Shown here one piece after another: positions 2 through 23,399 of a DNA stretch of 64,000 nt. Position 1 is the stretch's first letter. Each line of letters starts with the position of its first letter. Made by a program: the position numbers and the translations under genes. The DNA is taken from assembly GCA_965198225.1 (NCBI GenBank), contig CBDAOY010000006.1:832001-896000 (forward strand). Reading direction: 5' to 3'. The notes under the pieces were generated by a model. That model was not told where the DNA came from and made no database searches. It was given only the letters and a program-made list of their open reading frames with translations. The DNA is from Terriglobia bacterium. GTDB lineage: Bacteria; Acidobacteriota; Terriglobia; 20CM-2-55-15.

Positions 2-1022
2 GGCCGATATCGCATCTTCGGAGTCCAGCACGGTTGGGCCCGCAACGATGTCTACATCCAGGATCTCGAGGGCAGCGGCGAGATCCGTCCGGTTGTCGTC
101 GGCCTCCCCGCTCACTTCACCGTCCGCTTTCGGGAAGGACGCCTCTATGTGCGCACGGACATGGATGCGCCCATGTACCGGCTCATGGTCGCAGACCCGG
201 AGCGTCCGGAGCCGGAGCACTGGGAGGAACTCATCCCGGAGTCCGAAGATCTGTTTGAGACTTACAGCTTCATCGACGGCAGGATCTACGCCACGTACCT
301 CCACGACGTGAGTGATCGCATCCGTGTCTTCGCAGAGGACGGAACGCTGGTCGGTGAGGTGGAAATCCCCGATCACCTTTCCGCGACGATCCGGGGCGAC
401 GGTGATGGCAAGGCCTCCTTAACGTTGCGCGGTCACCTGCAGCCGAACACGACCTACGACCTCGACCTATCCAAGGGCGAGCGTCTGGTATCCGAGGAGT
501 CGGAAGTGCCCCGACTCGGGGTCACGGGTGCAAGCAATGGAGGATTGCTTGTGGCGAGCGCAATGACCCAACGCCCGGACCTCTTCCGCGCCGTTCTACG
601 CCCGGACCTCTTCCGCGCCGTTCTGCGCCTATCCCGATCTGGACATGGTGCGATTCAACACGTTCCGCAGCACGAACAACCTGCCCGCCCTCTTGGAGTA
701 CGGAGATGCCTCTATTCCCGAGCAGTTCGAAGCCATTCGGCAATACTCACCCTATCAAGCCGTGCGCGACGGTGTGGACTACCCGGCCGTGATGCTGACG
801 ACTGGAGACCTGGACACCCGAGTGCCGCCTCTTCAGGCCAGGCGGATGACCGCCCGGCTACAGGCCGCAACGTCGTCGGGCTTGCCCGTGATTCTGTATT
901 ACGACGAAAGGGGCGGCCACGCCGCCGGCCGCGGGCGACCCGTGAGCCTGCGAATCGAGGACTCGGCTCGAGAGATCACGTTCCTGGCCCAGCAACTGGG
1001 GTTGGGCGTGGAGCGTGAGTGA
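2..1022 (+). pseudogene. Prolyl oligopeptidase (S9A) family gene, 5'-truncated by the window, apparently internally deleted and frameshifted
   Basis: Frame open from base 2 with propeller-like sequence. It jumps from ...SEESEVP straight into RLGVTGASNGGLL (catalytic Ser motif). A 27-bp tandem duplication (571-597/598-624) follows. The C-terminus with DTRV (Asp) and GGH (His) lies in another frame (645-1022). Confidence 0.8.
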
Positions 1023-1279
1023 AGTTTCGGAACAAAAATACGCACGCTGGGAAGGCCGGCTCTCGACGATTTCAAATCAAGCAATTTCCAATGAAAAACC
1101 TGCAATGCGGATTACTCAATATCGCGATTTGCAATTGAACCCACTCAGTTTCCGAAGAGCTATTCTTCAGTAAGCGGTGGAACCCGAGGATCCCACTTCC
1201 CCGACCCGTTCTTGGGCACAGACTGGATTTGAATTACAATTCACGTCCCTACACCAAAACAAAGTGGAGGAGATCGGCG

Positions 1280-2317
1280 ATGACTATCTCGAACTTGAAT
1301 CGGAGAGACTTCCTCAGGATCTCGATTGCAACCGGCGCCGCCGCATCCGCGATGCTGGACCCAGGCCCCGCCGACGCCCAGACGTTTGCGAAGCCCGACT
1401 GGCGAATCATCGACATGCACACGCACCTGCTCCGGCAGGTGCGGCCTCCGTTGCCACGCACCCCAGTCCTGCGTGACAATCCGCTGACGAGTCATTACAC
1501 CTGGCACGAGCACAACGGGGACCTGCTGGTTGCCGAAATGAACGTGGCCGGCGTGACCCAGGCCCTGGTGAAGACCTACGAAGCCGAAGATCTGGCAATT
1601 GCGCTCAAACGCTTCGGAATAGATCCTGCTGAATTCCAGACCGGTGAAGAATACATGCTGCCCTGGATTCGCAAATATCCGGAGCGGTTCCTGTGGGCTG
1701 GTGTCTTCAACCCCACGAGGACCGACCGGATGGCCGAATGGAAGAGCCGCATCGAAGGCGAGGAGCTGAAAGCGGTGGTGTTCCGGCCTCCGTTCTTCCC
1801 GCGCAATCCGATCAACGACAGCACACACCGTGAAATTCTGGAGTGGTGTCGCGCCAACCAGAAACCGGTGATGATGACCTTCGAGGGCATCGTCCCTCCG
1901 GAGACGCCGAACCAGGCGGAGTACGTGGGCTGGTTCGCCGAGGTCGTCGACGCCTTCCCGGACGTGCGCTTCTGTCTCATGCACATGGGCTTCGACGAGC
2001 TGGCGCAGCTGGCGCGCGTACCGATGTTCCGTGTCGTCAACGAACTCAACGAGAGGCATGGCAACGTCTGGTTCGAAACCGCCATGCATGTCGATCATAC
2101 GTACCCGTACCTCGGCTATCTCGAGAAGCTCGAGATGCTGTACCAGGCCGTCGGGCGAGACAGGATCATGTGGAGTACCGATTGGCCCTGGACCGAAACC
2201 TGGAGCAAGTACTTCCAGCACGTCCAGGCGGTGCTCGAAAACGCCCATTTTCTGTCCCAGGACGAGAAGAGACTGTTTCTCGGCGAAAACGCCGTGACGT
2301 TCCTCGGAATCGACTGA
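1280..2317 (+). CDS. Tat-exported amidohydrolase family protein (Amidohydro_2-like)
   Basis: NRRDFL twin-arginine signal, IIDMHTH metal motif, HMG and WSTDWP motifs. GGAG lies upstream of ATG 1280. Confidence 0.85.
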   Translation: MTISNLNRRDFLRISIATGAAASAMLDPGPADAQTFAKPDWRIIDMHTHLLRQVRPPLPRTPVLRDNPLTSHYTWHEHNGDLLVAEMNVAGVTQALVKTYEAEDLAIALKRFGIDPAEFQTGEEYMLPWIRKYPERFLWAGVFNPTRTDRMAEWKSRIEGEELKAVVFRPPFFPRNPINDSTHREILEWCRANQKPVMMTFEGIVPPETPNQAEYVGWFAEVVDAFPDVRFCLMHMGFDELAQLARVPMFRVVNELNERHGNVWFETAMHVDHTYPYLGYLEKLEMLYQAVGRDRIMWSTDWPWTETWSKYFQHVQAVLENAHFLSQDEKRLFLGENAVTFLGID

Positions 2318-2338
2318 GGACGGGACCCTCGAGAGCGT

Positions 2339-2405
2339 GTAGGTGCGCTCTATGAGCGCACATGGTTGGGGCTCGAAGAATTGTGCGGTCATAGACCGCA
2401 CCTAG
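2339..2405. repeat. GTAG-family REP doublet (REPIN-like)
   Basis: GTAGGTGCGCTCTATGAGCGCAC followed by the inverted variant GTGCGGTCATAGACCGCACCTA. The same pair occurs at 35245 and 58115. Confidence 0.85.
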
Positions 2406-2493
2406 ACCTCTGTTTTGGAGAAGGAGGGTGTTTGAATGTTCCATGGGTTCGGTGTAGCGTGAGGCCGAAACCAAACGACAGGAGGCAACGTTT

Positions 2494-4755
2494 TTGATAT
2501 TCGCCTTGCCTTTGAAGCCGATTGTTCTGGCTCTGGCGCTCCTCGGCGCTCAGATGCCCCCGCCTCTCGGCGCGCCCGACGAAGCCCTCCTCGATGCCGC
2601 TCAACGCAACGACATGAACGACATGAACGACGTTCTGCGGGCCCTCCAGCAGGGAGCGGATGTCAATGCGCAGAAGTTTTACGGTGGCCGCGCCTTGCTG
2701 TTTGCGGCGACCAACGCGAACCTCGACATGGTGGAGCTGCTTGTCGAACGCGGGGCGGACCTCATGGTCGAGGTCACGCCATACCTCAGCGGAGTCGTCG
2801 GTGGGGTGATGCGCAGCGGGAATATGGGAATGACCCTGTATCTGCTGGAAAGGCTCGAGGAAGGATCGGCAGGAATCTCGGCCGTCGTCCTGTACGCCGT
2901 CGAACAGAAGAATCTCACGCTGCTCGAAGCGGCGTTCGCCCGAGCCGACATACCCGATACGGTGATCGCGGCCAGTCATGCGTTTGCCGTGAGGACCGAC
3001 AATGCCGAGATGGCAGCGGTGCTGGAGGCCGAGATGGGCCGACGTCCTGGCTCGGCAGATCTAGTCGTCACGCTGCCTCGGGCCGATCTGGACGCGTTCA
3101 CGGGCTCGTATCTGGACCTCAGCACCGGCCAGACTCAGAGGCTGACGTTCGATATCGCTCCCGACGACGTGAACCTCAGCGTGTCGATCACGGGCGCGAC
3201 GCGCGAGGTCTCACTGATGCTGGTCCCAACGTCGGATTCCACCTTCATCACCCCGCAGGTCGCCCACGCCAGTTTCCGATTCGATCGCCGGGATGGCGTC
3301 GTCGGGAGCGTGGTTTTCAGCAATCCGACCAACGGGAAGAATCCAACGCTCACCTACCTGCGCGCCGATGACGAGGCCGAGACGCTGGCGGCTGCTTCGC
3401 TGCCGAACGCGGGTCCGATCGACCTGTCCACGGTGCCGCGCGACACACCGCGACCGTGGCCGTCTTTCCGTGGGCCGAGCGCATCCGGCATCGCCGACGG
3501 GCAAGGCGCCGTCACGGAATGGGACGCCGGGACCGGCCGGAACATTCGCTGGAAGACGCCCATTCCCGGCATAGCGAACGCGAGCCCCATCATCTGGGGG
3601 AATCGCGTCTTCGTCGCCACCGCGGTCAGTAGCTCGGGCAACAGTTTTTTCCGGACCGGAGATTACAGCGGCGCATCGTCGGTCGACGATCTGTCCGAGC
3701 ATAGCTGGAGACTCTATGCGCTCGACGTCGAAAGCGGGCGCGTCGTCTGGGAGCGGGAAGTCCACCAGGGCGTGCCGCGCACGAAGCGTCACATGAAAGG
3801 TAGCCAGGCCAGCTCGACGCCGGCTACCGACGGACGCTACGTCGTCGTCATCTTCGGTACGGTCGGAATGTTTGCGACTTACGACATTGACGGCGAGCTG
3901 CTTTGGAAGAAGGACCTGGGGGTATTGGGCAACGGCTCCTATTACGATTCCAACGACCAGTGGGGCCACAGCAGTTCACCGATCATCTACGGGGACACGG
4001 TCATCCTTCAGATCGATCGCCAGAAAGATCCGTTTGTGGCGGCATATGATCTCGCAACGGGACGGGAGCTATGGCGGACGAGCCGGGAGGGTGAGATCTC
4101 CTCCTGGGGCACTCCGACGATCGTGACCGCAAGGTCGGGCGGAGATGAACTGATCACGAACGGCACCTCGATCAGGGGGTACGATCCAAAGACCGGCGAG
4201 CTGCGCTGGACGCTCGCACCGAATTCCGACGTCGCGATACCGACTCCGGTGGCCGGCCCCGACCTCGTTTACGTCGCTGCAGGGTATCCCCCGATCCGTC
4301 CGATCTACGCGATTCGACCGGGGTCCACCGGTAACATTTCTCTGGAAGACAGCGCCAGTTCCAACGAAGCCGTCGCCTGGAGCGCCCGGCGAGGCGGTCC
4401 CTACATCCCGACGCCGATCTTCTATCGAGGCGTGCTCTACGTCCTCAGAAACAACGGCGTCATCACGGGCTACGACGGCGGCACCGGTGAACGCGTCTAC
4501 CAGGCGCGGGTCGGCCGCGTTGGCGGCGCATTCACTGCCTCGCCCATCGCCGCCGACGGCCGCCTGTATCTCGTCAACGAAGACGGCGACGCGTATGTGC
4601 TCGAGGCAGGCCGGGAATACGTTTTGATATCGCGGAACGACATGAACGAAATCGTCATGACGACGCCCGCGATTTCAGACGGCCTGATTGTGATCCGCAC
4701 GTTCGGCCATGTTTACGGAATCGGAGATACGAGTGACAGGGGGCGTGAGAAGTAG
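2494..4755 (+). CDS. Secreted protein with N-terminal ankyrin-like repeats and C-terminal PQQ-like (BamB-type) beta-propeller
   Basis: Signal peptide, LQQGADVNA and LVERGAD ankyrin-like motifs, WPSFRGP..., SPII..., and repeated TGRELWR/TGELRWT Trp-docking motifs. AGGAGG lies before the TTG start. Confidence 0.8.
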   Translation: MIFALPLKPIVLALALLGAQMPPPLGAPDEALLDAAQRNDMNDMNDVLRALQQGADVNAQKFYGGRALLFAATNANLDMVELLVERGADLMVEVTPYLSGVVGGVMRSGNMGMTLYLLERLEEGSAGISAVVLYAVEQKNLTLLEAAFARADIPDTVIAASHAFAVRTDNAEMAAVLEAEMGRRPGSADLVVTLPRADLDAFTGSYLDLSTGQTQRLTFDIAPDDVNLSVSITGATREVSLMLVPTSDSTFITPQVAHASFRFDRRDGVVGSVVFSNPTNGKNPTLTYLRADDEAETLAAASLPNAGPIDLSTVPRDTPRPWPSFRGPSASGIADGQGAVTEWDAGTGRNIRWKTPIPGIANASPIIWGNRVFVATAVSSSGNSFFRTGDYSGASSVDDLSEHSWRLYALDVESGRVVWEREVHQGVPRTKRHMKGSQASSTPATDGRYVVVIFGTVGMFATYDIDGELLWKKDLGVLGNGSYYDSNDQWGHSSSPIIYGDTVILQIDRQKDPFVAAYDLATGRELWRTSREGEISSWGTPTIVTARSGGDELITNGTSIRGYDPKTGELRWTLAPNSDVAIPTPVAGPDLVYVAAGYPPIRPIYAIRPGSTGNISLEDSASSNEAVAWSARRGGPYIPTPIFYRGVLYVLRNNGVITGYDGGTGERVYQARVGRVGGAFTASPIAADGRLYLVNEDGDAYVLEAGREYVLISRNDMNEIVMTTPAISDGLIVIRTFGHVYGIGDTSDRGREK

Positions 4756-4770
4756 TCAGTAGTCGGTAGT

Positions 4771-6089
4771 CAGTAGTGTCCGACACGTTTCAGAATAGAT
4801 TCAATTGGTTAGCGTTAGAGTGTCGATTTGAGATGAGCCCGGATTCGGTAAGCAGCTGAAAAAGAGGCACATTCTCAAATGGTGTGACACTCAAGATCTG
4901 TAACATTGAGTGCAACGACAAAGGCAAATTCAGTTCTTTACGCACGATAGCCACCAGCACGTAAACGCTCACGGCGACCCAGACCTGAGTTTTGACGGCG
5001 TTCTCGGAAGTGCCGAAGAAACGCTTGATGCGCAGGTGCTGTTTGATCCATTTGAAGAACAGCTCCACCTGCCAGCGCAGGCGATACAACTCGCAGATGG
5101 TCCGGGCTGGGAGCGTCATGTGATTGGTCAAGAAAACCAGTCGCCGACCCTCGGGATCGCGATAACGAATGCGACGCAACCGTTCGGGGTAGCCGCGGCG
5201 GGAGCGAAATACGGTCAGTTCGATAGTCTGATCGCAGATGAGGCCCGTGTGTCGGTCGACGGGTTGGGAGTAGATGCGCTTGAACGCGAAGTCGGATCGA
5301 GCACGGGTGACGAAGAAGCTCCCGGCTTGATTGAAGGTGTAGAGGCGATCGAAGTCGAGATAGCCGCGGTCCATCACGTAGAAAGCACCGGCTTCGGCGA
5401 TGAGCAGGTCGAGAACGTTGACGTCGTGCAGCCTGCCTTCGGAGATGTGGATGAAGCTGGGGATACCGCCACGCAGGTCGAGCAGCGTATGAAGCTTCAC
5501 CGCGGCTTCGGTCTTTCGAAAGTGCGCCCAAGGGAACAGCGACAAGCACAGACTGATCATCGTGGAGTCGAGCGCGTAGACGGTTTCGTCCAGGTCGATC
5601 CCGAGCGGCTCGTGGGCATACAAGCGGCGTGCGATGCGGATCAGCGCCTGAGCGAACTCTCCGTAGATGCGCCAGTCGCGAGACTCGTTGGCATCGGCCA
5701 ATGCACTGCGGCTGACCTTCCCGTGCAACCCCAGGTGGTAGAGCTTGGCGGGTTGGGCTCGCAAGCAGGCTTGAATGTCGCGCAGGCTCTCCCGATAGGT
5801 CAGCTGAGCGAAGGCCATGCATAGGAACTGGTCCAGGCAACTGAATGTGCGGACGTTGAAATTGCCGCGGTACTTGGTCACCAGACGACGGAACGTATAC
5901 CACGGCGCGAACTCCATGACTTGTGCGAAGACCAGCTTGCCAGCGTGCATCGGTGCCTCCCAGAAACCTCTGGAAAGGCTGCCGCGAAGGCCGCACAGAA
6001 ATCAAATCGTTAACACCTTGACAAGCGCGCTACATCGCGTCAGTTCTAACTTTAGGACCGGGAGGTCCTAAATCTGTCGGACACTACTG
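4771..6089 (-). mobile_element. Complete IS4-family insertion sequence (1319 bp)
   Basis: Perfect 15-bp TIRs CAGTAGTGTCCGACA (4771-4785) and TGTCGGACACTACTG (6075-6089). 9-bp target duplication GTCGGTAGT at 4762-4770 and 6090-6098. Confidence 0.93.
4790..5950 (-). CDS. IS4-family DDE transposase (DUF4372-like N-terminus)
   Basis: ALDST, MDRGY and YRLRWQVELFFKWIKQ (IS4 YREK signature) motifs. The ORF lies within the TIRs. Confidence 0.93.
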   Translation of the reverse strand: MHAGKLVFAQVMEFAPWYTFRRLVTKYRGNFNVRTFSCLDQFLCMAFAQLTYRESLRDIQACLRAQPAKLYHLGLHGKVSRSALADANESRDWRIYGEFAQALIRIARRLYAHEPLGIDLDETVYALDSTMISLCLSLFPWAHFRKTEAAVKLHTLLDLRGGIPSFIHISEGRLHDVNVLDLLIAEAGAFYVMDRGYLDFDRLYTFNQAGSFFVTRARSDFAFKRIYSQPVDRHTGLICDQTIELTVFRSRRGYPERLRRIRYRDPEGRRLVFLTNHMTLPARTICELYRLRWQVELFFKWIKQHLRIKRFFGTSENAVKTQVWVAVSVYVLVAIVRKELNLPLSLHSMLQILSVTPFENVPLFQLLTESGLISNRHSNANQLNLF

Positions 6090-6135
6090 GTCGGTAGTCA
6101 GTAGTCAGTTGGCGGCTGCGCCGCGGCGCTCGAAG

Positions 6136-6376
6136 CTAGCTGGAGCTTTCACTTCCGGGCTTCCAGCCATTAGGTCACCCCAATAACTGCCGGATATAAC
6201 TACGGCGCCATACTGGAAATTGCGCCGGCGGGACTTGAACCCGCTAGCACAGCAGCTAGCCTCGCTGCGCCACTTCCTCGCTGTCTACGCTTCTCTCCCG
6301 CCGGTCACCCGGCGACAGGCAAGACTCGCTACCGGCCTGCCCTCTACGGCTTTAACCGGACTGGACTTTCACCGGT
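6136..6376 (-). mobile_element. Relics of two group II intron 5' (domain I) regions
   Basis: The minus strand reads ...GTGAAAGTCC...GAGTCTTGC...GAAGCGTAGACAG (motifs shared with the intron at 7762), then GCGCAGCGAGGCTAGC...GCGGGTTCAAGTCCCGC. No D5/D6 is seen. Confidence 0.6.
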
Positions 6377-7047
6377 TATTTCCCCTTGTCATCTGTAGCG
6401 CTGTCGAATAGTGTGAAACACGTCGATTCGTTGTCGAATGCAATTGTTTTCAAGCCTTTAAGCCTTGGGGAAACTCTCAAGTCGGCGGCGGCGATCGGTA
6501 TGGCGTCATGCCGCTGGGAAACAATCCAGAAAGCCTCCACGAGACCTCCGACTCTACCTTTGTGCCGAAATGGATCAGAGGGGCCTGCTGTCAGTGAAGA
6601 TCACTAAAACACCCATGAGTGAGCGCCATCCGAGAGGGACAGCGTACAGACGGACAAGAGGGCTCATTTCAACCGCGCAGACTGTTACAATCCGCTTCAC
6701 GCCTGAAGACACAGTGATTCCGTCGATCGAGATCCAGCGGGTACTTCCTGCAATGGGGTCGATTCGCGACACGGCGGCCTCTCTATTCGGCTTTACGGCT
6801 GATTTCAATGTGCGCCGTGAGAAGGCGCCAATCCTCAGCGGGTGCGAATCCCGCCCGGCAACTGTCGCTCCAGTCGGTAGCAATCGGAGCGGATGGTGGA
6901 GGTAACAACATCGTCTGAAGCACTCCGATGACAAAGGGCCGCCTCGGGCGGCTCAGCGACCACACAGGCCACAACGCGAGTAAACGCCGAGCAGGCCTCG
7001 AAACGCACAATGCGGAAGCCGACCCGCCGTTGAAACGGGGAAGGCGT

Positions 7048-7710
7048 CACGAGCGGAAGGGGACCCCGCAAGGGTCTCCGATCTCGCCGCTGTTCAGCAA
7101 CATCTACATGCGGCGCTTCATTCTGGGCTGGAAGGTGCTGGGCTACGCCCGGCACTTCAAGGCGGAAATCGTCAACTACGCGGATGACTTCGCGGTTCTC
7201 GGTCGCGCGCCGGCAGCGGTGATGCTAGCGGCGGTCGAAGCCCTGATAAAACGTCTGAAGTTGGCGATGAACGTTGAGAAGACCCGCTGCTGCCGGGTGC
7301 CGGAGGAATCGATGACGTTCCTCGGCTACCGGATCGGTTGCAACTACCGGCCGGGTACGGGTGCCGCCTACATAGGCACACATCCGAGCCGGGAAAGCGT
7401 CCAGAGCATCTGCCGTCGTGTGAGCGAGTTGACCGCGCCGCGCCACGTGCTCCTGCCGTCGGGAGTCGTAGTGGGACGCCTCAACCGGTTGCTGATCGGT
7501 TGGGCGAACTATTTCATCCTGGGACAGGTCCGCCCGGCCTACAAGGCGATTGATCAACACGCGACCCGGCGGCTGCGCCAGTGGCTCTGCCGTAAGCACA
7601 AGGTGCGGACCGGGAAACACGTGCGCTTCCCGTCCGAGCGGCTCTGGTCCGATTACGGGCTCACGCATCTTGCGCCGCGTACGGCGAGCTTTCCGTGGGC
7701 GAAGGCATGA
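7048..7710 (+). pseudogene. 3' fragment of group II intron reverse transcriptase/maturase
   Basis: GTPQGSPISPL, NYADDF, FLGY and GWANYF motifs. The N-terminal RT subdomains are missing, and domain I RNA is fused directly to the PQG region. Confidence 0.88.
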
Positions 7711-8162
7711 TCTCGTCCGAGAGCCGGATGCGGGAAATCCGCATGTCCGGTTCGATGAGCGTTGCGCCTTGCAAGCGCATGAGATCCAGTCGCCTGAGAT
7801 GGCGGCCGTGGCAGAGCCTAGCCGGCAGCCACGTACCGAGTCTTGCGTGGTGGTCGGTGACGGACACTGCGAAGCGTAGACAGGGAGGGAGTAGGCCGGA
7901 ACACCAGTGAACGGAAAGATAGCCCCGAAATCGAACGTGGTTGAAGTAGCCGACCCTGTCGCTCTAGGGGGAAGGCGGAATCGCAGGGCACGCAATGGCA
8001 AGTGCCCTGGGGTGCTTCCGGGGTTCGTACCGCCGGCATGCAACCAAGGATTTCATGGGAACAAGGGAGATCCGTCAGGTTCAAGCGGAGCTTGTAGGGT
8101 TGGACAAGCCAACAACGCGAGGAAGACCCGAAGGCCTGTCGGAAGTCAGACTGGCTGATAGT

Positions 8163-9975
8163 GCGTGCCTGGCAGCACGCGTTTCCGGCGGGTTAAAGTC
8201 CCGCTCGGCCCGAGGCCACGGGTCGATATCCAACAAGTGGGGGTAATGCCTCACTGGCCGAAGTGTAGACAGGTAGTGCAGATGCCTAAACGGGCACGAA
8301 GGCGAAAGCCGGATACGGCCAAGGCAAAGCTGGAGCCAGCTACGGAAACTTTGGAGGGCAGGGCGCCCACCGCGAGGTGGGGTCTGAAGGGCATGAGGAG
8401 AACCACCGGGTCGTAATCGACGGGAGCCATCCCGAGGATGAACCGGTCGGCCAAAGATGGGGAATGGTCGAGCCCGCACTATTGGGGCGAAGGCGCATTG
8501 GTTCCACCCCATCGCACCAAGGTGTGTGCGGGCGACACGGTGGAGAAGAGACGCGAGTGACCCAGGGAGGCCTGGTATCGTCCGAGCGGAAGGTAAGGTC
8601 GAGATGATGTGGCACCCGCAGACGAAAGGGCGGGCAACCGAGAAGACAAACATCGACCTAGAGCCCTGCGCGGTAGGTGCGGATATAAGCGAGAGCGAAA
8701 TTCCGGCCGACGCGGTGTCAGGAATCGGATCGGGGAATAGTGCGTGCCTGGCAGCACGCGTTTCCGGCGGGTTAAAGTCCCGCTCGGCCCGAGGCCACGG
8801 GTCGATATCCAACAAGTGGGGGTAATGCCTCACTGGCCGAAGTGTAGACAGGTAGTGCAGATGCCTAAACGGGCACGAAGGCGAAAGCCGGATACGGCCA
8901 AGGCAAAGCTGGAGCCAGCTACGGAAACTTTGGAGGGCAGGGCGCCCACCGCGAGGTGGGGTCTGAAGGGCATGAGGAGAACCACCGGGTCGTAATCGAC
9001 GGGAGCCATCCCGAGGATGAACCGGTCGGCCAAAGATGGGGAATGGTCGAGCCCGCACTATTGGGGCGAAGGCGCATTGGTTCCACCCCATCGCACCAAG
9101 GTGTGTGCGGGCGACACGGTGGAGAAGAGACGCGAGTGACCCAGGGAGGCCTGGTATCGTCCGAGCGGAAGGTAAGGTCGAGATGATGTGGCACCCGCAG
9201 ACGAAAGGGCGGGCAACCGAGAAGACAAACATCGACCTAGAGCCCTGCGCGGTAGGTGCGGATATAAGCGAGAGCGAAATTCCGGCCGACGCGGTGTCAG
9301 GAATCGGATCGGGGAATAGTACTCAGGAACGAGACGGCAAACATAAGGTCTCGGATCGTTGCTTCGAGCAGCGGCGCTGGCGGGTCCAAAAGGCCCGTTG
9401 GAGGGGGAAGTCCCCGTACTCAGTCGTGAATGTGCGAGCGATGGGAAACGCGGAGATATCGTGGAATTGGATAGTTCCCTTAGCGAAAGACCCAAACGCG
9501 GTACGAACGAAGCCGCCACCTGCCGCCACACAGCGAATTCCGAACGAGGAGCAACTGAGGAAAGCGGCTTGCGGGAAAACCGCACGAGCCGTTTGATTGA
9601 GCGGACGGTGGAGCGGACGGTGGGATCGGCCCGACCACTTTCGACTCTACACTCAGGAACGAGACGGCAAACATAAGGTCTCGGATCGTTGCTTCGAGCA
9701 GCGGCGCTGGCGGGTCCAAAAGGCCCGTTGGAGGGGGAAGTCCCCGTACTCAGTCGTGAATGTGCGAGCGATGGGAAACGCGGAGATATCGTGAACTTGG
9801 ATAGTTCCCTTAGCGAAAGACCCAAACGCGGTACGAACGAAGCCGCCACCTGCCGCCACACAGCGAATTCCGAACGAGGAGCAACTGAGGAAAGCGGCTT
9901 GCGGGAAAACCGCACGAGCCGTTTGATTGAGCGGACGGTGGAAGGGCCGATCGGCCCGACCACTTTCGACTCTAC
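8163..9975 (+). mobile_element. ORF-less group II intron 3, outer copy (8163-8741 plus 9651-9975, 904 nt)
   Basis: Starts GCGTG. EBS1 ACTATT at 8478-8483. D5 AAAGCGGCTTGCGGGAAAACCGCACGAGCCGTTT at about 9891-9924. Ends GACTCTAC. Domain IV is short with no RT ORF. Confidence 0.85.
8742..9650 (+). mobile_element. ORF-less group II intron 3, inner copy (909 nt), inserted into the outer copy
   Basis: Contiguous near-identical copy with an intact AATAGT-ACTC junction at 9315-9324, EBS1 at 9057-9062 and D5 at about 9561-9594. It produces the A-A-B-B repeat pattern (579 bp and about 325 bp). Confidence 0.82.
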
Positions 9976-10101
9976 ACTCCGAGGTCGGGAGAGCCGATCA
10001 CATGGGGAAGCGGCCAGCAGAAGTGGACTCGTTCTTGGGAAACATGAGCTCCATGCAACGGGAGGATACGGTCCTCTATGCAACGAGAGGAACAACCAGT
10101 C

Positions 10102-11424
10102 ATGGAAACGAAACTGGAACGAATAGCGGCGAAAGCTCGGAGTGAGCCAAAGCTCCGGTTCACGTCACTGGCGCATCATGTCACCCGAGAGCGTGTGTGG
10201 AAGAACCTGTGTCAAGTGCCCCGCAACACGGCTCCCGGATGTGATGGTCAGAGGGTACCGGAGGCGAAGGAGGAATTCGGAGTCTGGGTGGAGCCAATGC
10301 TCCAGTCTGTTCACCAGAAGGGATATCGCGCTCCGCCGATTCGGCGGGTGTATATCCCCAAGCCCGGCAAGCAGGAGAAACGTCCCCTGGGCGTGCCCTG
10401 TGTTCAAGATCGGGCCCTTCAGCGCAGCGTGGCCGAGGTATTGGTCGCCATCTACGAGCAGGACTTCTTGCCCTGTTCCTTTGGTGGCCGGCCTGGGCTG
10501 GGCGCCCACAATGCACTGGCAACCCTCCATGAGGTGATTTCCGGATGCAAGGTGAGTTGGGTGTTGGAGGCGGACTTGAAGAACTTTTTCGGGAGTTTAG
10601 ACCATGGATGGCTACTCCGCTTTGTGGAGCATCGAGTCGGAGATCCGCGGATCATCAGTCTGATACGACGATGGTTAAAGGCGGGCGTTTTCGAAGACGG
10701 GGAATTGCATTCGAACGAAGAGGGAACCCCGCAAGGTGGGTCGATCAGCGTTCTGCTGAGCAATCTGTACCTGCATTATGTGCTTGACCTGTGGTTTGAC
10801 CGGATGGTCCGGCCACGCCTGAAGGGTGAAGCGTATCTGGTGCGGTACATCGACGACTTTGTCGTGTGTTTCCAATATCGGGACGATGCGCTTCGTTTCC
10901 AGAACGTTCTGCGCAAGCGACTGGGAAAGTTTGGACTGGTTCCGGAGCCGACCAAGACGAAGCTCGTCGAATTCGGCCGCTATGCCCAGCGCGATGTCGT
11001 CCGGCGCGGGAGAAAACGTCCAGAGACGATCTATTTTCTGGGCATGACCCTGTACTGTACGCGTAATCGCAAAGGCAATTTTAGAGTGGGACTGCGAACA
11101 GAGAAGTCTCGACTTCGACGCAGTCTGGCTCATCTACGCGGCGTGATGAGGCGAATGCGTCACTTGCCGGTCCGGGAGCAAGTGCACAATCTGAACCGAG
11201 TCTTGCGCGGGCACTACGCCTACTATGGCATTGCCGGGAACCTCCGGGCTCTGCAGCACGTCGCTCGGGCCGTGGAACGTTACTGGCGCCAAATGCTCAG
11301 CAGTCGTAGTCGTGCAGGCTTCGTCCGGTGGGAAGTATTCAACCGGATTCAGCTGCACTTTCCGTTACAGCGTCCCAAGTTGGCTCTCCGCTATCGGGAG
11401 TTCCAGTCTCTCGCTGTGCTGTAA
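10102..11424 (+). CDS. ltrA: Group II intron reverse transcriptase/maturase, apparently without endonuclease domain
   Basis: IPKPGK..RPLG, SFGGRPG, EADLKNFF, GTPQGG and RYIDDF motifs plus the X-domain RGHYAYY. The stop lies just before D5. Confidence 0.95.
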   Translation: METKLERIAAKARSEPKLRFTSLAHHVTRERVWKNLCQVPRNTAPGCDGQRVPEAKEEFGVWVEPMLQSVHQKGYRAPPIRRVYIPKPGKQEKRPLGVPCVQDRALQRSVAEVLVAIYEQDFLPCSFGGRPGLGAHNALATLHEVISGCKVSWVLEADLKNFFGSLDHGWLLRFVEHRVGDPRIISLIRRWLKAGVFEDGELHSNEEGTPQGGSISVLLSNLYLHYVLDLWFDRMVRPRLKGEAYLVRYIDDFVVCFQYRDDALRFQNVLRKRLGKFGLVPEPTKTKLVEFGRYAQRDVVRRGRKRPETIYFLGMTLYCTRNRKGNFRVGLRTEKSRLRRSLAHLRGVMRRMRHLPVREQVHNLNRVLRGHYAYYGIAGNLRALQHVARAVERYWRQMLSSRSRAGFVRWEVFNRIQLHFPLQRPKLALRYREFQSLAVL

Positions 11425-11620
11425 ATCCAATTCTGAAGAGCGCAGTGCGGGAAATCCGCACGCTGCGTTCTGTGGGAGCCGGAGGCGGGCAACTGCCTCC
11501 GGCCACCCGGTGCGACTGGAAACGAAGCCACGGCGAGGAGTGAGGCACCGGAATCGGCGAAAGCCACCGGCAACAGCTACCCCCTTTGCCTACCGCCACC
11601 GCGCCAGTCGTCGACTCTAC

Positions 11621-11703
11621 ACGAAGTAACGAAGGCAACGAAGATCGGAAAAGATATTGCTATCTTCGTCTCGCTTCGTGCCCTTCGTTACTTCGTGTTA
11701 AAA
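11621..11703. repeat. Hairpin made of short ACGAAG-containing units
   Basis: ACGAAGTAACGAAGGCAACGAAG ... CTTCGTGCCCTTCGTTACTTCGTGTTAAAA inverted arms. Confidence 0.7.
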
Positions 11704-11742
11704 GAGAACGTTTGTCTTAGCGCAATGATCGGGTCAGGGCTT

Positions 11743-12795
11743 TCACTCGGGGCCCAGCAGCAGCTTTCGGTCGAGGTCGGCGACATTCCCGGCGCCCACT
11801 AGAAACATGGCGGTCCTCATTTCCCGGAACAACCGTTCGCCCGCCGCCACGACAGCGTCGGCCGATTCCCTGGCGGCGAGCAGAAACGGTCGGGCGACGG
11901 CCACGTAGTCAGCACCGAGCGCCAGCGCTTTGATGGCCTGGATCCCGTTCCGAATGCCTCCGCTGGCGACGATCCTTGCCGATCCTGTTCGGTCGGGATC
12001 GATCCTTTCCAGGATCCATCGCGTTGGCAGGCCGAAGTCGCTGAACATCTCACCGAAGGATGGATCCTGGCTCAGTCGGGCCTCGACCGCGGCCCAACTC
12101 GTTCCGTCGTTGCCTGAGACGTCGATGTAGCCGACACCAAGGCCGGCAATGGTTTCGACCAGTTCGGGGGCGATTCCACCGCCGCATTCCTTCACGTAGA
12201 CCGGTAGTGGACAGCGTTGGACAAAGTCGTCCAGGTGTGATGTGAGGTTTCTGAAGTCGGTGTCCCCACCCTCCTGGATCGATTCCTGAAGCGCGTTGAG
12301 GTGGAGTCCGAAAACATCCGGTCGGATGCGTTCGATGATCTGCGCGGCCTGGTCCCAGGCCAGACCGTAGTTGAAACTGACCAGTCCCAGGTTCGCAATC
12401 AAGGGGACCGACGGGGCAAGGTCGCGCACTTCGAAGCTGGGCACGGCCGCATCGTCCTTGACCATCACCTTCATCGATCCCAGGCCGAGAGGTACCTGTA
12501 GCCGTTCTGCCCCTGCGGCCAGGTTCGAGTTGAGCCGTTTGAACTCCTCTCCGACACCCCCGGTCATCGACGAGATGATCAACGGCGCCGCGATCGCTCG
12601 TCCGGCGAATCGGGTCTCTGTTGAAACTTCCGACAGAGCGAGTTCCGGCAGGGCGTTGTAGCGTAGCTTGAGGTCTGCAAAACTGTCGCGTCGCAGGTCC
12701 ACCGACGGGTCCAGACACACTTCGATGTGGCCCTGCTTACGTCTGTTCAGCGACTCGTTCAGGTCGGCGTTGGCCTCGCCCCCGGGGTCCGGCAT
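11743..12795 (-). CDS. fni: Type 2 isopentenyl-diphosphate delta-isomerase
   Basis: RKQGHI, SSMTGG, GLGS, HLNALQE, VKECGGG, GTSW and ASGGIRNG motifs of the FMN-dependent IDI-2 family. Confidence 0.92.
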   Translation of the reverse strand: MPDPGGEANADLNESLNRRKQGHIEVCLDPSVDLRRDSFADLKLRYNALPELALSEVSTETRFAGRAIAAPLIISSMTGGVGEEFKRLNSNLAAGAERLQVPLGLGSMKVMVKDDAAVPSFEVRDLAPSVPLIANLGLVSFNYGLAWDQAAQIIERIRPDVFGLHLNALQESIQEGGDTDFRNLTSHLDDFVQRCPLPVYVKECGGGIAPELVETIAGLGVGYIDVSGNDGTSWAAVEARLSQDPSFGEMFSDFGLPTRWILERIDPDRTGSARIVASGGIRNGIQAIKALALGADYVAVARPFLLAARESADAVVAAGERLFREMRTAMFLVGAGNVADLDRKLLLGPE

Positions 12796-12966
12796 GGGCG
12801 GTCATTCTAACACCCCATTCGAGAGACTTCCCCGGCCCCGCGTTCGGCGCCCTTGCGGTTCGGCCTCCGGCCTTTTTGGAGGCGAGGGGTCAGTTGTGGC
12901 GGATGCTGTGCTGCCTCTGCGGTAGAATTCAGGCTCCAGTCCGCCGGTAGAAGTCGAGGAGTCTTG

Positions 12967-13713
12967 ATGACTGAGAGTAACGACAGGGTATCGCCGGGTG
13001 GGGGTTCGAGCGGTATCCCTGATCGGAAACACTCCGAAGAAAAGGCCCCGTCGAGCTATCTGATCCAGGTTTCGCCACGCTTTCTCGTGACACTACTCGC
13101 GATCCTGGCGCTCACCCTCCTGCTCTGTCACGCCGCGTTGACGATTTACCACTACCAGGTCGATGAGTTGCCCTGGCTTCCCTGGCGCCAGCTCTTCGAC
13201 GTCGACGAAGAGAATAATCTGCCGACATGGTTTTCGGAGTTGCTGCTCCTTACCGCGACGGTGCTGCTGTGGTTATGCGCCGGTAAGAAGCGCCGTGATG
13301 AGGACCCGTCCTTCGGCTGGTACGTGCTGACCATCGGGTTTTTCCTGCTTGCGATCGACGAGGTCGCGGGAATCCACGAGACAATCAACAGCTTGATCGA
13401 TACGACCTGGGCGATCGGTGGCGGTTTGCTTGCTCTTGGAATTGGCCTGGGCTTCATACCGTTCCTGTGGCGGCTGCCCAGGCTAACGGCAATTCTGTTC
13501 GCCCTCGCCGGGGCAATCTATGTCGGCGGTGCGGTGGGTGTGGAGATCATCGGGGAACCACTCGACAGCGACTCGCTCCAGTACAACCTCTTAACCGTCC
13601 TGGAGGAGGGCATGGAGATGTTCGGTGTCATCTTCTTCATACACGTGCTGCTCGGCTACATGCGGGAACCTCGGGCGAACATCCTGCAGGGAGCTGTTGA
13701 GTTGACAGGGTAG
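12967..13713 (+). CDS. Multi-pass membrane protein of unknown function
   Basis: About 6 hydrophobic segments with acidic/His motifs EENNLPTWFS, DEVAGIHE and EEGMEM. Confidence 0.65.
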   Translation: MTESNDRVSPGGGSSGIPDRKHSEEKAPSSYLIQVSPRFLVTLLAILALTLLLCHAALTIYHYQVDELPWLPWRQLFDVDEENNLPTWFSELLLLTATVLLWLCAGKKRRDEDPSFGWYVLTIGFFLLAIDEVAGIHETINSLIDTTWAIGGGLLALGIGLGFIPFLWRLPRLTAILFALAGAIYVGGAVGVEIIGEPLDSDSLQYNLLTVLEEGMEMFGVIFFIHVLLGYMREPRANILQGAVELTG

Positions 13714-13770
13714 CGGATCCCGACGATCGCTTCGTTGACTTCCAGGCGTGCCCAAGCTAGCCTCTCGGTC

Positions 13771-15354
13771 ATGACACGACCATCCGCTTTGACCGCCGTT
13801 ATTCTGCTCTTGTCAGGGTGTAGCGGCCCTCCCCCGGATTCCGCCGCGATTCCTGACATCGACGGCGATGCGATCTCGGGCCACATCCAGGCCCTGGCGT
13901 CGGACGACATGGAAGGCCGCGCTCCCGGCAGCGCCGGGGAGGGGCTGGCGACCACGTACATCGCCGACTATTTTCGATCGATCGGCCTGGATACGTCTTT
14001 CCAGAACGTGCCCCTGGTCGGGACGACCGCAACGCCGACATCGCTGACCCTGCGCAAAGGCGGCGAAACCCGGACGCTCGCCTACCGCGATGAGTTTATG
14101 GCATGGACGACTCGGGAGGTTGAATCGATCGCCCTGGACCCGGCCGAGATGGTCTTCGTCGGTTACGGCACGGTTGCTCCGGAGTATGACTGGGACGACT
14201 ACGCGGGCGTCGATGTCGAAGGCAAGGTGCTCCTGATGCTGGTCGGAGATCCACCGCTCGAAGACGAAAGCATGTTTGGTGGACAGGCGATGACCTACTA
14301 CGGACGCTGGACCTACAAGTACGAGGAGGCCGCACGCCAGGGCGCCCGTGGTGCCTTCATCGTCCACGAGAACGCACCGGCCGGCTATCCCTGGGAGGTC
14401 GTCAGCGGATCCTGGTCGGGCGAACAGTTCGACATGGTCAAGGCCGACAGAGGGGCGTCCGAGACCGGAATCCAGGGCTGGATCACGCTGGAGATGGCCC
14501 TGCAGCTGGCCGAGTGGGCCGGGCATTCGTTCGATGAGCTGAAGCAGCAGGCGTTGAGTCCGGAGTTCAATCCGATACCGCTGGGCGTCGATGCGTCAGT
14601 CGAGATCGAAAACACGTTGAGGCATGTGGATTCGAAGAACGTCGTTGGCGTGCTCGCCGGCGAGACTGATGAGTACGTCGTCTTTTCCTCGCACTGGGAC
14701 CACATCGGAAGAGATGGCTCGATTGAGGGAGACCAGATCTACAACGGCGCCGTCGACAATGCATCCGGGATTGCCACGATGCTTGAAATCGCCCGTGCCT
14801 TCACCGCGCTGCCGGACAGGACGCGTCGGACATTGGTGTTCCTCGCCGTGACCGCCGAGGAGCAGGGTCTGCTGGGGTCGAAGTACTACGCCGAGAACCC
14901 GCTGTTCCCGCTGGAGCGGACCGTCGCCAACATCAATATTGATGGCGCGAACGTCTATGGCGCGACCGACAAGATCATCGTGATCGGCTACGGCTACACG
15001 TCGCTGGAGGACCACCTGAGGCGGATCGCGTCCGAGCAGGGGAGGGCGGTCGTTCCGGATCCGGAATCAGAAAAGGGTTTCTACTACCGTTCGGACCAGT
15101 TCAATTTCGCCAAGAAAGGCGTTCCCGCTCTCTATATTGACAGCACCAACCTTGAGGACAGCAACCGCTACACCGCCGAGCGTTATCACAAGCCCTCGGA
15201 TGAATTCGATCCCACCTGGAATTTCGACGGAGCCGTTGCGGACGCTGTGGCCCTGTTTAGTGTGGCCCTGGAGGTCGCCGATGCGGACGACTGGCCGGAA
15301 TGGATGCCGGGCACCGAATTCAAAGCGGTTCGAGACGAAATGCTCAACCGGTGA
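13771..15354 (+). CDS. M28 family metallopeptidase with PA domain, lipoprotein
   Basis: LLLSGC lipobox, SHWDH, NGAVDNASG, AEEQGLLGS, RSDQ and YHKPSD motifs. Confidence 0.9.
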   Translation: MTRPSALTAVILLLSGCSGPPPDSAAIPDIDGDAISGHIQALASDDMEGRAPGSAGEGLATTYIADYFRSIGLDTSFQNVPLVGTTATPTSLTLRKGGETRTLAYRDEFMAWTTREVESIALDPAEMVFVGYGTVAPEYDWDDYAGVDVEGKVLLMLVGDPPLEDESMFGGQAMTYYGRWTYKYEEAARQGARGAFIVHENAPAGYPWEVVSGSWSGEQFDMVKADRGASETGIQGWITLEMALQLAEWAGHSFDELKQQALSPEFNPIPLGVDASVEIENTLRHVDSKNVVGVLAGETDEYVVFSSHWDHIGRDGSIEGDQIYNGAVDNASGIATMLEIARAFTALPDRTRRTLVFLAVTAEEQGLLGSKYYAENPLFPLERTVANINIDGANVYGATDKIIVIGYGYTSLEDHLRRIASEQGRAVVPDPESEKGFYYRSDQFNFAKKGVPALYIDSTNLEDSNRYTAERYHKPSDEFDPTWNFDGAVADAVALFSVALEVADADDWPEWMPGTEFKAVRDEMLNR

Positions 15355-15368
15355 CACGTGAGGTAGGC

Positions 15369-16250
15369 ATGCCACACAGGCTCCTCCCGATAGTTCTTGC
15401 TCTGGTTCTCCCCACGTTTCTCTGCGCACAGGACGGGCCGAAGAAGATCTTCATTTCTGTCGACATGGAGGGCATCACCGGCGTCGTCAGTTCCCAGCAA
15501 AGCGGATCAAGCGGGCGCGACTACCCCACGTTCCGCCGGATCATGACTGAGGAGGTGAATGCCGCCATCGGAGCCGCGCTACGGATGGGAGCGGAAACGA
15601 TCCTTGTTTGCGACGCTCATGGCAACAAGCAGAACATCCTGCCGGAGTTGCTCCATCCCGCGGCCCGCCTCGTCCGGGGAGATCCCCGGCCCCTGGGCAT
15701 GATGCAGGGCCTGGATGAAACGTTCGATGCCGCGATGTTCATCGGGTACCACGCTTGGGCCGGAACGTCCGATGCCGTCCTCGATCACACGATGAACGGT
15801 CGAATCCACGATCTGAGGCTGGATGGCAACCAGATGTCGGAAGGCACGTTCAACGCAGCTCTCGCCGGGTCACTTGGAGTGCCCGTGATTTTCGTTTCCG
15901 GCGACCGTGCGGCGGTGGAACAGATTCGGGAGTTTGTCGGGGATGTCGAGTCGGCCATCGTCAAAGAGGGCGTCGAACAGGCGACGATTTCCGTGTCTCC
16001 CCGCAGAGCGCTCGAGATGATCGACGAGTCGGTCGAACGGGCCATGCGCCGCTATTCGGATTTCAGACCCTATTCTGCCAGCACTCCTCACAGCGTCGAA
16101 ATCGATTTCTCGACGGAAGCCCAGGCCGGGATGGCGTCATGGGTTCCGTCGGTAAGCCGCGTGAATCCGCGCTCGATCCGGTTCACCGCAGACGACATGC
16201 TGGATGCGATGAGGATGACACGGCTGCTGGCGATCTACGTGAGCCCCTGA
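15369..16250 (+). CDS. M55 family D-aminopeptidase (DppA-like) with signal peptide
   Basis: FISVDMEG, DAHG, IGYHA, DHT and SGD motifs. Confidence 0.9.
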   Translation: MPHRLLPIVLALVLPTFLCAQDGPKKIFISVDMEGITGVVSSQQSGSSGRDYPTFRRIMTEEVNAAIGAALRMGAETILVCDAHGNKQNILPELLHPAARLVRGDPRPLGMMQGLDETFDAAMFIGYHAWAGTSDAVLDHTMNGRIHDLRLDGNQMSEGTFNAALAGSLGVPVIFVSGDRAAVEQIREFVGDVESAIVKEGVEQATISVSPRRALEMIDESVERAMRRYSDFRPYSASTPHSVEIDFSTEAQAGMASWVPSVSRVNPRSIRFTADDMLDAMRMTRLLAIYVSP

Positions 16251-16285
16251 GCGCGGGGAGAGCGCGGTCATAGACGCACGATTGT

Positions 16286-18685: not shown

Positions 18686-18719
18686 GATTCCTGTCTCCTC
18701 TTTGTGGGTCCGATTTCAA

Positions 18720-19208
18720 TCAATCTTCGGACTCGGCTTCGGGGCCCACGAGTCGGGTCTGAACGTTGATCTCCGACTTCAAAGTCCTGTGAACCGGGCA
18801 CTTGTTGGCAATCTCCAACAGCCGGTCTCGTTGCTCGTCGCTAAGTGGCCCTCCGAGTTCGATCGCCCGTTCTATCCGGTCGACTTTCCCCTCTTTCGTC
18901 TCGCAATCGTCGCAGTCGCCCGCGTGTATCTTTCCATGCCGGAGCACGACCGTGATGCTCTCCAGGGGCCATTGCTTGCGCTTGGCGTACATCGTCAGGG
19001 TTATCGATGTGCACGCTCCGAGTGCTGACGCGAGGAGGTCATAGGGCGTGGGGCCGGAGTCGGTTCCTTCAGGCGCGGGTTCGTCGGCTGTCAGTCGGTG
19101 CGAACCCACGATAATCTGGTTCGCCAAGCCGGCGCCTTCGCGCCGCACCATCACGATTCCGGGGTCACTGGTGGTCACCTGTTGTCGGTTCTCGTCCACT
19201 TTGCTCAT
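18720..19208 (-). CDS. OsmC family protein
   Basis: [16 protein letters not shown] and KCPVHRTL Cys motifs. GGAGGAG RBS. Confidence 0.9.
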
Positions 19209-19441
19209 CGACACTCCTCCATTGAGGCACGAATTCTGGGGGCCTGGCGTTGGACGATCTTATACCAGATGGATCGACTCTAAACACAAGAAATCAGAGC
19301 GTCAGGGCTCTCCCGATGCACGCGCCAGATACCCATCGGGCGGGTGATATAATTGGCGCGTCGGCTCGCGGGAAACAGTTGGCCGATCGGTCCCCTTGAG
19401 GTGATCGGGAGCTGATGATCAGTCGTTCCGGAGGACACGCG

Positions 19442-22987: not shown

Positions 22988-23002
22988 GCGTCGCGCTCGA
23001 GT

Positions 23003-23399
23003 GTAGGTGCGCTCTATGAGCGGAACCATCTATTAGCGTCGGGCCCACCGTCCCCCTCACGACGAAAGACTGAACGTTCACGGACCGAATTGCAGTGCGA
23101 GGGTTCGCTGAGAAAGACAGTTGGTCCGGTCCCCCCACGCCATCCCTGACCAGAACAGTGTGTGTCATAGGCCGCACCTACACCTATCGCGAATTGCTAT
23201 ATTTGAAAGAATCCACATCGTAGGTTGCGGATTGCAGATTGTTTCATTTCAGATTTCCGACCAATAAGAAATCGAGCAATTTGCAATCTCCAAATCTCCA
23301 ATGCGGAATCGTCCAATGACCAATCTGCAATAGCTGTCGGACGAGGTCCCAGCCACCTCGCTCGATCGAGTACAATGTGCGGTCATAGACCGCACCTAC
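23003..23399. repeat. Cluster of GTAG-type REP copies (23003, about 23160 degenerate, 23377-23399)
   Basis: GTAGGTGCGCTCTATGAGCG and GTGCGGTCATAGACCGCACCTAC lie between convergent genes, with ATTGC/GCAAT short-period repeats between them. Confidence 0.75.

Follow-up and report, generated by a model that had tools for sequence, protein, structure and literature searches.

How do group II introns come to be stacked four deep in non-coding bacterial DNA, and can such an array still splice? The question is raised by a stretch of 64,000 nt (contig CBDAOY010000006.1, positions 832,001-896,000; hereafter the window) from a Terriglobia bacterium, which lies on contig C6 of G000, a 9-contig assembly resembling a metagenome-assembled genome (MAG). 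An earlier note, made from the letters of the window, had described introns nested at positions 6810-11620, with pairing between exon-binding site 1 (EBS1) and intron-binding site 1 (IBS1) at every level, and had proposed that they splice from the inside out. The evidence given below makes it likely that the locus is a genuine Russian-doll array of three mobile group II introns, built by site-specific retrohoming and later damaged and reshuffled, the nesting arising because two of the intron kinds habitually enter the conserved core of other introns.

The array occupies the + strand and is made up of three intron kinds, I1, I2 and I3, arranged so that I1 contains I2, I2 contains an outer I3 and the outer I3 contains an inner I3. 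Once the inserts are taken out, I1 measures 1061 nt (952 + 109), I2 1937 nt (401 + 1536), the outer I3 904 nt (579 + 325) and the inner I3 909 nt. The 5' segment of I1 (6810-7761) matches the Rfam model RF02003 (6836-6979, 82.8 bits) and carries the start of domain 1 (D1; the other domains are abbreviated likewise), EBS1 at 7029-7035, a deletion joint at ~7044/7045, a reverse transcriptase (RT) remnant recognised by Pfam and running to 7710, D5 at 7721-7753 and the first 8 nt of D6 (7754-7761); its 3' segment (11512-11620) holds the rest of a long D6, with a candidate branch A at 11614 and a CUAC end. The 5' segment of I2 (7762-8162; RF02005 at 7797-8031, 137.2 bits) runs from a UUGCG start through D1, with EBS1 CGCTC at 7960-7964, D2 and the D2/D3 junction (J2/3) to the 5' strand of D3 as far as its internal loop, and the 3' segment (9976-11511) contains the remainder of D3, D4 with an intact open reading frame (ORF) for a 448-aa RT/maturase (10078-11424; Pfam RVT_1, 5e-29, plus GIIM), D5 at 11438-11470, D6 and a GGU end. 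The D5/D6 model RF00029 is matched above its cut-off at both levels (7719-7780, 40.3 bits; 11436-11511, 47.1 bits).

The outer I3 consists of a 5' segment at 8163-8741 (I3 positions 1-579), starting with GCGUG and bearing EBS1 ACTATT at 8478-8483, and of a 3' segment at 9651-9975 (I3 positions 580-904) with the rest of D3, a short D4, D5 (9892-9924) and D6. Between the two lies the inner I3 (8742-9650), a whole ORF-less intron with EBS1 at 9057-9062, D5 at 9562-9594 and a D6 whose bulged A (9644) is 7 nt from the intron end. The D5 of both I3 copies folds with a 2-nt bulge, and minimum-free-energy folds leave the D6 A unpaired at 9644, at 9969 in the outer I3 and at 11505 in I2. Of 909 aligned columns, 10 differ between inner and rebuilt outer I3, owing to 5 substitutions and one indel of 5 nt; the distal D6 of the inner copy carries a 12-nt duplication and forms a less stable fold (-38.7 vs -46.4 kcal/mol).

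To what extent does removal of each insert give back an intact host? For the outermost level, the joint 7761/11512 is contiguous in two further I1 copies (G000:C6:5959-6784 and C5:743295-744121; 827-nt alignments), and uninterrupted I1 folds into D5 followed by a long D6, with a 13-bp basal helix and a bulged A 7 nt from the end, equivalent to position 11614. I2 interrupts the 5' strand of this basal helix after 5 nt, 8 nt past D5. RF00029 aligned to an uninterrupted I1 copy stops precisely at the I1 terminus, and the 3' segment is 100% identical to 8 other I1 3' ends. The termini of I1 are exact, as seen from an empty site in the closed same-genus genome G056, in which the left flank of the window (82% identity) runs straight into the sequence that follows the I1 3' end at G000:C4:153881 (85%) with no nucleotide lost or gained.

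For I2, we sampled 80 loci of its family (roughly 500 loci) from other genomes, found with the I2 RT. The joint 8162/9976 (I2 positions 401/402) is contiguous in 73 of these 80 loci, at 79-91.6% identity; it is never contiguous in G000, where I3 directly follows all six I2 5' parts and the I2 3' segment recurs with 100% identity at 5 other loci. The family starts with TTGCG or TTGTG in 71 of the 71 junctions printed. A consensus fold of 55 distinct family 5' regions places D2 at 306-386, then J2/3 (AGA) and D3 at 390-443, the D3 stem being supported by covariation (pair 393:440 is GC in 27, AU in 17, CG in 6 and GU in 5 members). The site entered by I3, AUAGU/A at 401/402, falls in the 5' strand of the D3 internal loop, which is near-invariant, A399, U401, A402, C403 and U404 being present in 55/55.

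Nothing interrupts the joint 8741/9651 (I3 positions 579/580) in the inner copy or in many further copies of I3. In G000, all 20 I3 5' junctions start with GCGTGCC, in 10 distinct contexts, and 18 of them follow TAGT; the two exceptions read GATGGC and CGTAAT, so the GT preceding I3 belongs to the exon. An A follows I3 at 21/21 of the 3' junctions. I3 itself carries the target motif at its positions 574-583, as found in the D3 loop of I2, and it is on motif homology only that the second I3 would have landed in D3 of the first. These joints, contiguous in uninterrupted copies or relatives, establish the order of nesting and all eight boundaries as the earlier note had drawn them. They also bear out its view that taking out the inserts restores the hosts (D6 of I1 in 2 G000 copies, D3 of I2 in relatives, I3 in many copies) and that the insertions hit ribozyme domains, namely D6 of I1 and a D3 loop, the latter by covariation fold in I2 and by motif homology in I3.

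Are the insertion sites also the sites that the introns would recognise? Each intron is preceded by an IBS1 that faces its own EBS1: TTTCAAT (6803-6809, in the 5' exon) faces GTTGAAA at 7029-7035 with one G-U pair for I1; GAGCG (7757-7761), within the 5' strand of the I1 D6 helix, faces the CGCTC of I2; and GATAGT (8157-8162, in the D3 internal loop of I2) and AATAGT (8736-8741, the outer I3's own D3 target) face the ACTATT of the outer and inner I3, respectively, all on the + strand. For I2, an unbiased mutual-information scan of 20 exon x 300 intron positions in 50 family members returned, as its top two pairs, exon -4/intron 202 and exon -2/intron 200, which are the proposed EBS1 register, and at least 5 contiguous pairs form at the same loop in 44 of 53 members. 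No convincing covariation was seen for an EBS2/IBS2 pairing of I2 between exon positions -6 to -20 and the 5' 300 nt. I3-like introns elsewhere display compensatory EBS1:target pairs (ACUAUG:CAUAGU, AGUAUG:CAUACU and CCAAAG:CUUUGG). For I1, no covariation was found, and the pairing sequence recurs at independent sites: four other near-identical copies read ATTTCAAC/GTGCG (the slash marks the junction) within otherwise unrelated flanks, and the unoccupied site on G000:C8 has TTTCAAC at the expected place (...TTTTTCAAC/ACGCAG...). Overall, the EBS1/IBS1 pairing is beyond chance for I2 and I3, with weaker support for I1, and the assignments first proposed from the window all hold, through covariation in the I2 and I3 lineages and, in the case of I1, through targets that independent sites have in common.

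Where does the ORF-less I3 come from? G000 contains two copies of a 2153-nt intron, I3-FL (C5:501714-503866 and C6:343788-345941), from which I3 differs by the loss of one 1249-nt block in D4 (at I3 position 795) and by 35 mismatches in 904 nt (~96% identity); the outer I3 5' segment is 96.9% identical to I3-FL 1-579. The comparison shows I3 as a deletion derivative of I3-FL, predicted to encode no RT of its own. I1 and I2 had been considered as parents and were dropped once I3-FL was found, nucleotide similarity being limited to ~20 nt at the end of D6, in which I3 resembles I1. The I3-FL ORF is an intact 475-aa RT/maturase (RVT_1 2.8e-33, GIIM 1.5e-19). As the earlier note had stated, a single intact RT is present in the nest region, that of I2; it is unlikely to serve I3, which would most likely rely on the protein encoded elsewhere in the genome by I3-FL, because the I3-FL RT is intact and just 31% identical to the I2 protein, as it is to that of I1. 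Both the I2 RT, which has no endonuclease domain, and the I3-FL RT match solved group II RTs; naming an RT class for either was given up, as these matches assign neither.

I3 is absent from the closed same-genus genome G056 (best matches ~42 nt long, E 3.4e-5), yet G122 and G128, which represent two further genera of the family, have it in near-identical form; this suggests that it has spread horizontally, and recently. In G128, I3 is 99% identical and lies at the same D3 site, although its host, a relative of I2, shows just 82-90% identity; this argues for independent homing and not for copying of the composite. A weak 81-nt match in a further genome, G075, is given no weight here. I3-like introns that belong to other families of the same class also occupy D3 of a host intron; L090 and L092 lie ~140 nt past a D1 match of the host, and L089 is found upstream of its host's D5. 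A search of a metagenome collection gave 0 exact 30-mer matches to the I3-in-I3 junction and also 0 to the I3 5' end; I3 is absent from this collection, and the search is hence uninformative. Farther along the window, at 53606-53657 (+), an orphan last ~50 nt of I3 (D6 and 3' end) is followed by unrelated sequence and looks like a 5'-truncated insertion.

The position of I2 within I1 is typical of its family. We searched for a hairpin of D5 architecture in a window ending 6 nt before the I2 5' end, at junctions with at least 46 nt upstream (n = 66), and found it at 43 of them, compared with 3 of 660 random 40-mers from the same loci. This test replaced a laxer one (59/66 junctions vs 110/330 random windows), which is uninformative alone. 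A host-intron D1 of RF02005 or RF02003 type lies upstream on the same strand in 10 of the 16 family loci scanned, in records of Methylobacter, Mesorhizobium and Acidobacteriota, and some members sit in D6 of their own kind (L046, L051). The family occurs in Acidobacteriota, in Alpha-, Beta- and Gammaproteobacteria and in MAGs of sulfate reducers; outside this phylum, its members appear to lie nearly always 8 nt past D5 of another group II intron.

Can the array still splice? The I1 ORF (6928-7710) retains only the second half of RVT_1 (positions 111-205) plus GIIM, and alignment with the 1994-nt copy at G000:C6:5959-7952 reveals that the window I1 is devoid of one 933-nt block, which starts 9 nt past EBS1, ends in RT motif 4 and comprises the rest of D1, D2, D3, D4a and RT motifs 0-3, i.e. 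half of the RT. By its architecture, the window I1 is a dead relic that should no longer be able to splice, because these 933 nt of core have been deleted. The splicing cascade would therefore not complete, as removal of I2 restores D6 and not a working I1; the inside-out splicing proposed earlier would come to a halt at this step.

Other copies of I1 are interrupted differently. Those at G000:C4:145572-153880 and C5:743295-748253 carry extra inserts, one of ~1.5 kb at I1 position ~190 and one of ~1.46 kb within the block that is deleted in the window, and the C4 locus also contains the D5 of another intron (59 bits, 150206-150281). Deeper or different nests probably exist in G000.

The course of events that best accounts for these observations would be the following. 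I1, an RT-encoding intron with a D1 of RF02003 type, would insert after TTTCAA(C/T), guided by its EBS1 GUUGAAA. I2, also RT-encoding and bounded by 5'-UUGCG...GU-3', would have entered I1 at the start of D6, 8 nt past D5, through the CGCUC:GAGCG pairing, the D6 start of another group II intron being the presumed usual DNA target of its lineage. The 904-nt, non-autonomous I3 would target the D3 internal loop, ..AUAGU/ACUC, via EBS1 ACUAUU; it would have entered D3 of I2, after which a second copy would have hit the same motif in the first. Insertion presumably proceeds by reverse splicing and reverse transcription, with I3 served in trans by the I3-FL protein. In the RNA, the inner I3 would leave before the outer I3, and the outer I3 before I2. 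We read the array as selfish DNA, a set of perpetual landing sites and a recombination substrate, and not as a gene-expression device, because I1 appears dead, the setting is non-coding and the outer flanks come from different ancestral sites.

This last point deserves closer inspection. To the right, window 11616-17410 is a 5.8-kb copy, 99.86% identical to G000:C8:586361-592156; its left edge meets the 3' end of I1, and the I1 target on C8 is unoccupied. To the left, the array is flanked by what we call site A, whose true right flank lies at G000:C4:153881. The discordance therefore points to recombination between intron copies, or to an assembler crossing between them. Recombination products are present in G000: I3 exists as 1-904 followed by 580-904 (C5:812868-814096), as 1-579 followed by 1-904 (C4:150750-152235) and as 1-871 followed by 711-904 (C4:97368-98438), together with deleted I2/I3 hybrids. 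The junctions of the nest also recur in this genome, the 5' I1/I2 junction at 4 loci, the 3' I2/I1 junction at 7, the I3/I2 junction at 7 and the 5' I3-in-I3 junction at 4.

We compared the array with four public runs, which provide short contigs only and no long reads; such contigs drop rare forms. Runs labelled sponge metagenome or metatranscriptome held about two thirds of the sampled words, and the closest named records are Terriglobia MAGs. The outer junctions are present in DNA contigs, 6809/6810 by 30 nt (X1, X2) and 11620/11621 by 25 nt (X1), and the I1/I2, I2/I3, I3/I2 and I2/I1 junctions are likewise covered by contigs of these runs. At 11512, two DNA runs (X1, X2) show loose ends with the same sequence of I1 D6, and the parts left without cover (8792-9159 in three runs) consist of repeats that were attributed to the first copy. 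Word depth is ~100 to 20000 in intron parts vs 4-8 in the unique flank; many copies or strains are therefore present. The joined forms 8741/9651 (RNA runs X13 and X14) and 7761/11512 (X13) were rejected as signs of splicing, as the same forms exist as DNA in G000.

Several observations weigh against a genuine, homing-built nest. Some concern the identity and state of the introns. Both I3 copies give just weak RF02001 matches (8366-8473 and 8945-9052, 24.5 bits, cut-off 32), and the RF00029 scores of D5/D6 in other I3 copies, 33.4 and 37 bits, are below the cut-off of 40. Compared with the consensus GUGYG, I1 starts with GUGCG, I2 with UUGCG and I3 with GCGUG, so that I2 and I3 deviate; relatives of I3 elsewhere start with GUGUG, and altered termini have been described for some group II introns (PMC4424553; this and the other published systems are cited from the available parts of each text). 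The sole uninterrupted full-length I1 copy seen (L094, G000:C6:5959-7952) is frameshifted in the maturase domain of its RT by the loss of 1 nt, and no intact I1-type RT was seen in a search that was not exhaustive. Others concern the assembly. The outer flanks imply either that the array is recombinant or that it contains a chimeric join. In the four short-contig runs, no bridging contig is listed for the I3-in-I3 junctions (8741/8742 and 9650/9651) and no read or contig spans the whole array, which leaves single-molecule linkage unconfirmed. The joined 8162/9976, the sole form diagnostic of splicing in that it is not DNA in G000, went unseen there, bearing in mind that rare forms drop out of contigs, and these runs yield no valid evidence of splicing or transcription. 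A second assembly does contain an I2>I3>I3 nest, on a 16.6-kb MAG contig (L001/L082, taken as one record given their identical layouts), and it may not be independent.

The main alternative is that the assembler threaded together near-identical intron repeats from different loci or strains, and that the real locus is simpler, with a single I3 or other flanks. A 9-contig, MAG-like assembly with dozens of near-identical intron copies is prone to this reading, as are the flanks from different ancestral sites with their near-perfect duplicate on C8, junctions that are backed only by contigs of k-mer size, and intron word depths that imply many copies or strains. We regard it nevertheless as rather unlikely, since the I3-in-I3 arrangement at 579/580 recurs at 4 G000 loci in different contexts, one of them with a diverged inner copy (82.7%, C8:159308), and also in G122; since the 10 differences between inner and outer I3 argue against a collapsed repeat; and since the outer junctions and those between I1 and I2 and between I2 and I3, in both directions, do occur in contigs, every junction being an exact intron terminus with a matching IBS1. 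This last property also counts against the idea that the doubled I3 arose by partial tandem duplication of, or unequal recombination within, one I3, and not by homing. The recombinant I3 forms listed above speak for such an event, but the insert spans I3 from its first to its last nucleotide, whereas a duplication would not respect intron termini, and it sits between AATAGT and ACTC, the same motif that I3 uses in I2 and in other hosts; the recombinant forms are, besides, the expected leftovers of one crossover within a true nest. We therefore consider a duplication highly improbable.

A further reading accepts the nest and takes it for a working unit, either spliced serially or behaving as a 'zombie' twintron in which I2 splices with I3 retained. 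The I2 ORF and ribozyme are intact and 100% identical at several loci, all with I3, so that I2 may have spread carrying I3; splicing of an outer intron without that of the inner one is documented in plant mitochondria (PMC7049729); and contigs from RNA libraries cover I2 and I3. On the other hand, the outer step is impossible for an I1 without the region from the 3' part of D1 to D4a, the plant insertions lie in the dispensable D4 while the insert here splits a near-invariant D3 loop, and the RNA libraries may contain DNA and show no spliced I2 joint. This makes a working nest unlikely, and we retain the retrohomed, later damaged array as the best explanation.

How does this array compare with known ones? 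Nesting four deep is not unprecedented: in Methanosarcina acetivorans up to five introns are nested, through repeated homing into introns and balancing deletions, with no coding exons (PMC4424553). The present array resembles it in its nested introns without coding flanking exons, in repeated site-specific homing, in deletions by homologous recombination, in the coexistence of ORF-less and RT-encoding forms and in some altered termini (PMC4424553). As in the Methanosarcina arrays, precise intron-in-intron junctions recur at several loci of the genome, and turnover by recombination is apparent from I3 dimers, I2/I3 hybrids and discordant flanks, the flanks being alternatively an assembly error. 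The Methanosarcina homing sites reportedly lie in intron RT ORFs, to go by the title of Dai & Zimmerly 2003. Here, unlike that case as titled, the sites fall within catalytic RNA domains (D6, 5' strand; D3, internal loop), the host is a bacterium, and the array combines three unrelated intron families, whose RTs share about 31% identity.

[quoted passage not shown] There too, an ORF-less intron has arisen by ORF deletion with an RT-encoding relative in the same genome, as for I3 and I3-FL here, and introns have evolved to enter a conserved site of another mobile intron; the target, however, lies in domain IV between the first two ATGs of the ORF, nesting has one level and mobility was shown experimentally (PMC2882425). 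The array described here has its targets in D3 and D6 and four levels, and is known from sequence alone. In Euglena psbF, the inner intron lies in domain V. The Euglena chloroplast and Trichodesmium twintrons share with the present array an inner intron that interrupts the outer ribozyme, which requires inside-out splicing; they lie in expressed genes and their splicing was shown, whereas this array is intergenic, has a dead outermost intron and is inferred from its sequence (PMC4424553; PMC4649490). The lycophyte mitochondrial 'zombie' twintron cox1i1149g2 is likewise an intron inserted in a copy of itself, but as a dispensable D4 insertion in which the inner copy is degenerate and unspliced (PMC7049729); here the conserved D3 loop is the regular target of the element, with D5, D6 and branch A still present in the inner copy. 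Finally, the intron UHB.I2 from a soda-lake metagenome resembles I2 in its 5'-UUGCG..GU-3' ends, an RT without endonuclease domain and an insertion right after a stem-loop, which its authors read as an integron attC, placing the RT in class CL1 (PMC7923331). Kinship between UHB.I2 and the I2 family, matched by description, is only a lead.

The surroundings of the array contain further mobile or repeated DNA. Pfam gives no match for 4 ORFs around 5817-6934, which flank it. An insertion sequence at 4758-6110 (-), with a DDE_Tnp_1 and DUF4372 transposase (ORF 4790-5950), is repeated at least 9 more times, at 99-100% identity, on six contigs of G000. It is followed by a D1 fragment of RF02005 type at 6230-6369 (-; 59.3 bits, only the first ~105 model positions aligning well), and the segment 6143-6377 has a 96.6% copy at G000:C9:983327-983561. 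On the other side, the 3' exon of I1 starts with a long hairpin (11621-11698, +; -47 kcal/mol, z -5.3), which opens the 5.8-kb stretch duplicated on C8. This hairpin (11620-11698), directly at the I1 3' splice site, lies past the end of a gene for a flavin mononucleotide (FMN)-dependent dehydrogenase (11743-12795, -); similar ~80-nt sequences occur in the same-genus genomes G080 and G048 (73-90% identity), so that the hairpin may belong to a dispersed family of palindromic repeats. Farther on, at about 22997-23408, two short dispersed repeats (~185 and ~250 nt) lie side by side, with many copies at 83-96% on several contigs.

Overall, the array differs from known cases in its D6 and D3 targets, in its three unrelated families and in a homing habit that is lineage-wide and crosses phyla. 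The landing sites appear to be new, nesting itself being known from an archaeon; in the literature searched, whose scope did not extend to Dai & Zimmerly 2003, Simon et al. 2008, Toro et al. 2002 and probably Dai & Zimmerly 2002, we found no description of intron lineages targeting D6 or D3. Annotation pipelines that exclude or do not detect nested copies will miss such families (PMC4028801, PMC8919778, as far as the parts available of these two papers describe them).

Nested group II introns illustrate how selfish retroelements persist in compact genomes by landing in one another and not in genes. The present array is bacterial and is surpassed in depth only by the deepest archaeal one; its targets are catalytic RNA motifs and not the protein-coding parts of introns, and the habit behind it is no local accident. 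We tentatively propose, holding it possible and a little short of probable, that the I2 family and the I3 lineage are widespread specialised hyperparasites of group II introns, homing to the D5/D6 junction or to the D3 loop near J2/3. If so, the use of conserved catalytic motifs as targets would provide a landing site in any intron-bearing genome, and the host ribozyme would be disabled until the insert splices out, making the mobility of an intron dependent on its own parasite. This would hold intron load in check by natural means and open the way to nests of growing depth. Should the habit hold up, it would offer a simple system for intron-on-intron parasitism, with natural cases of ribozymes that an insert in D3 or D6 has inactivated, as well as two rules for retargeting, with EBS1 directed against D6 or against D3.

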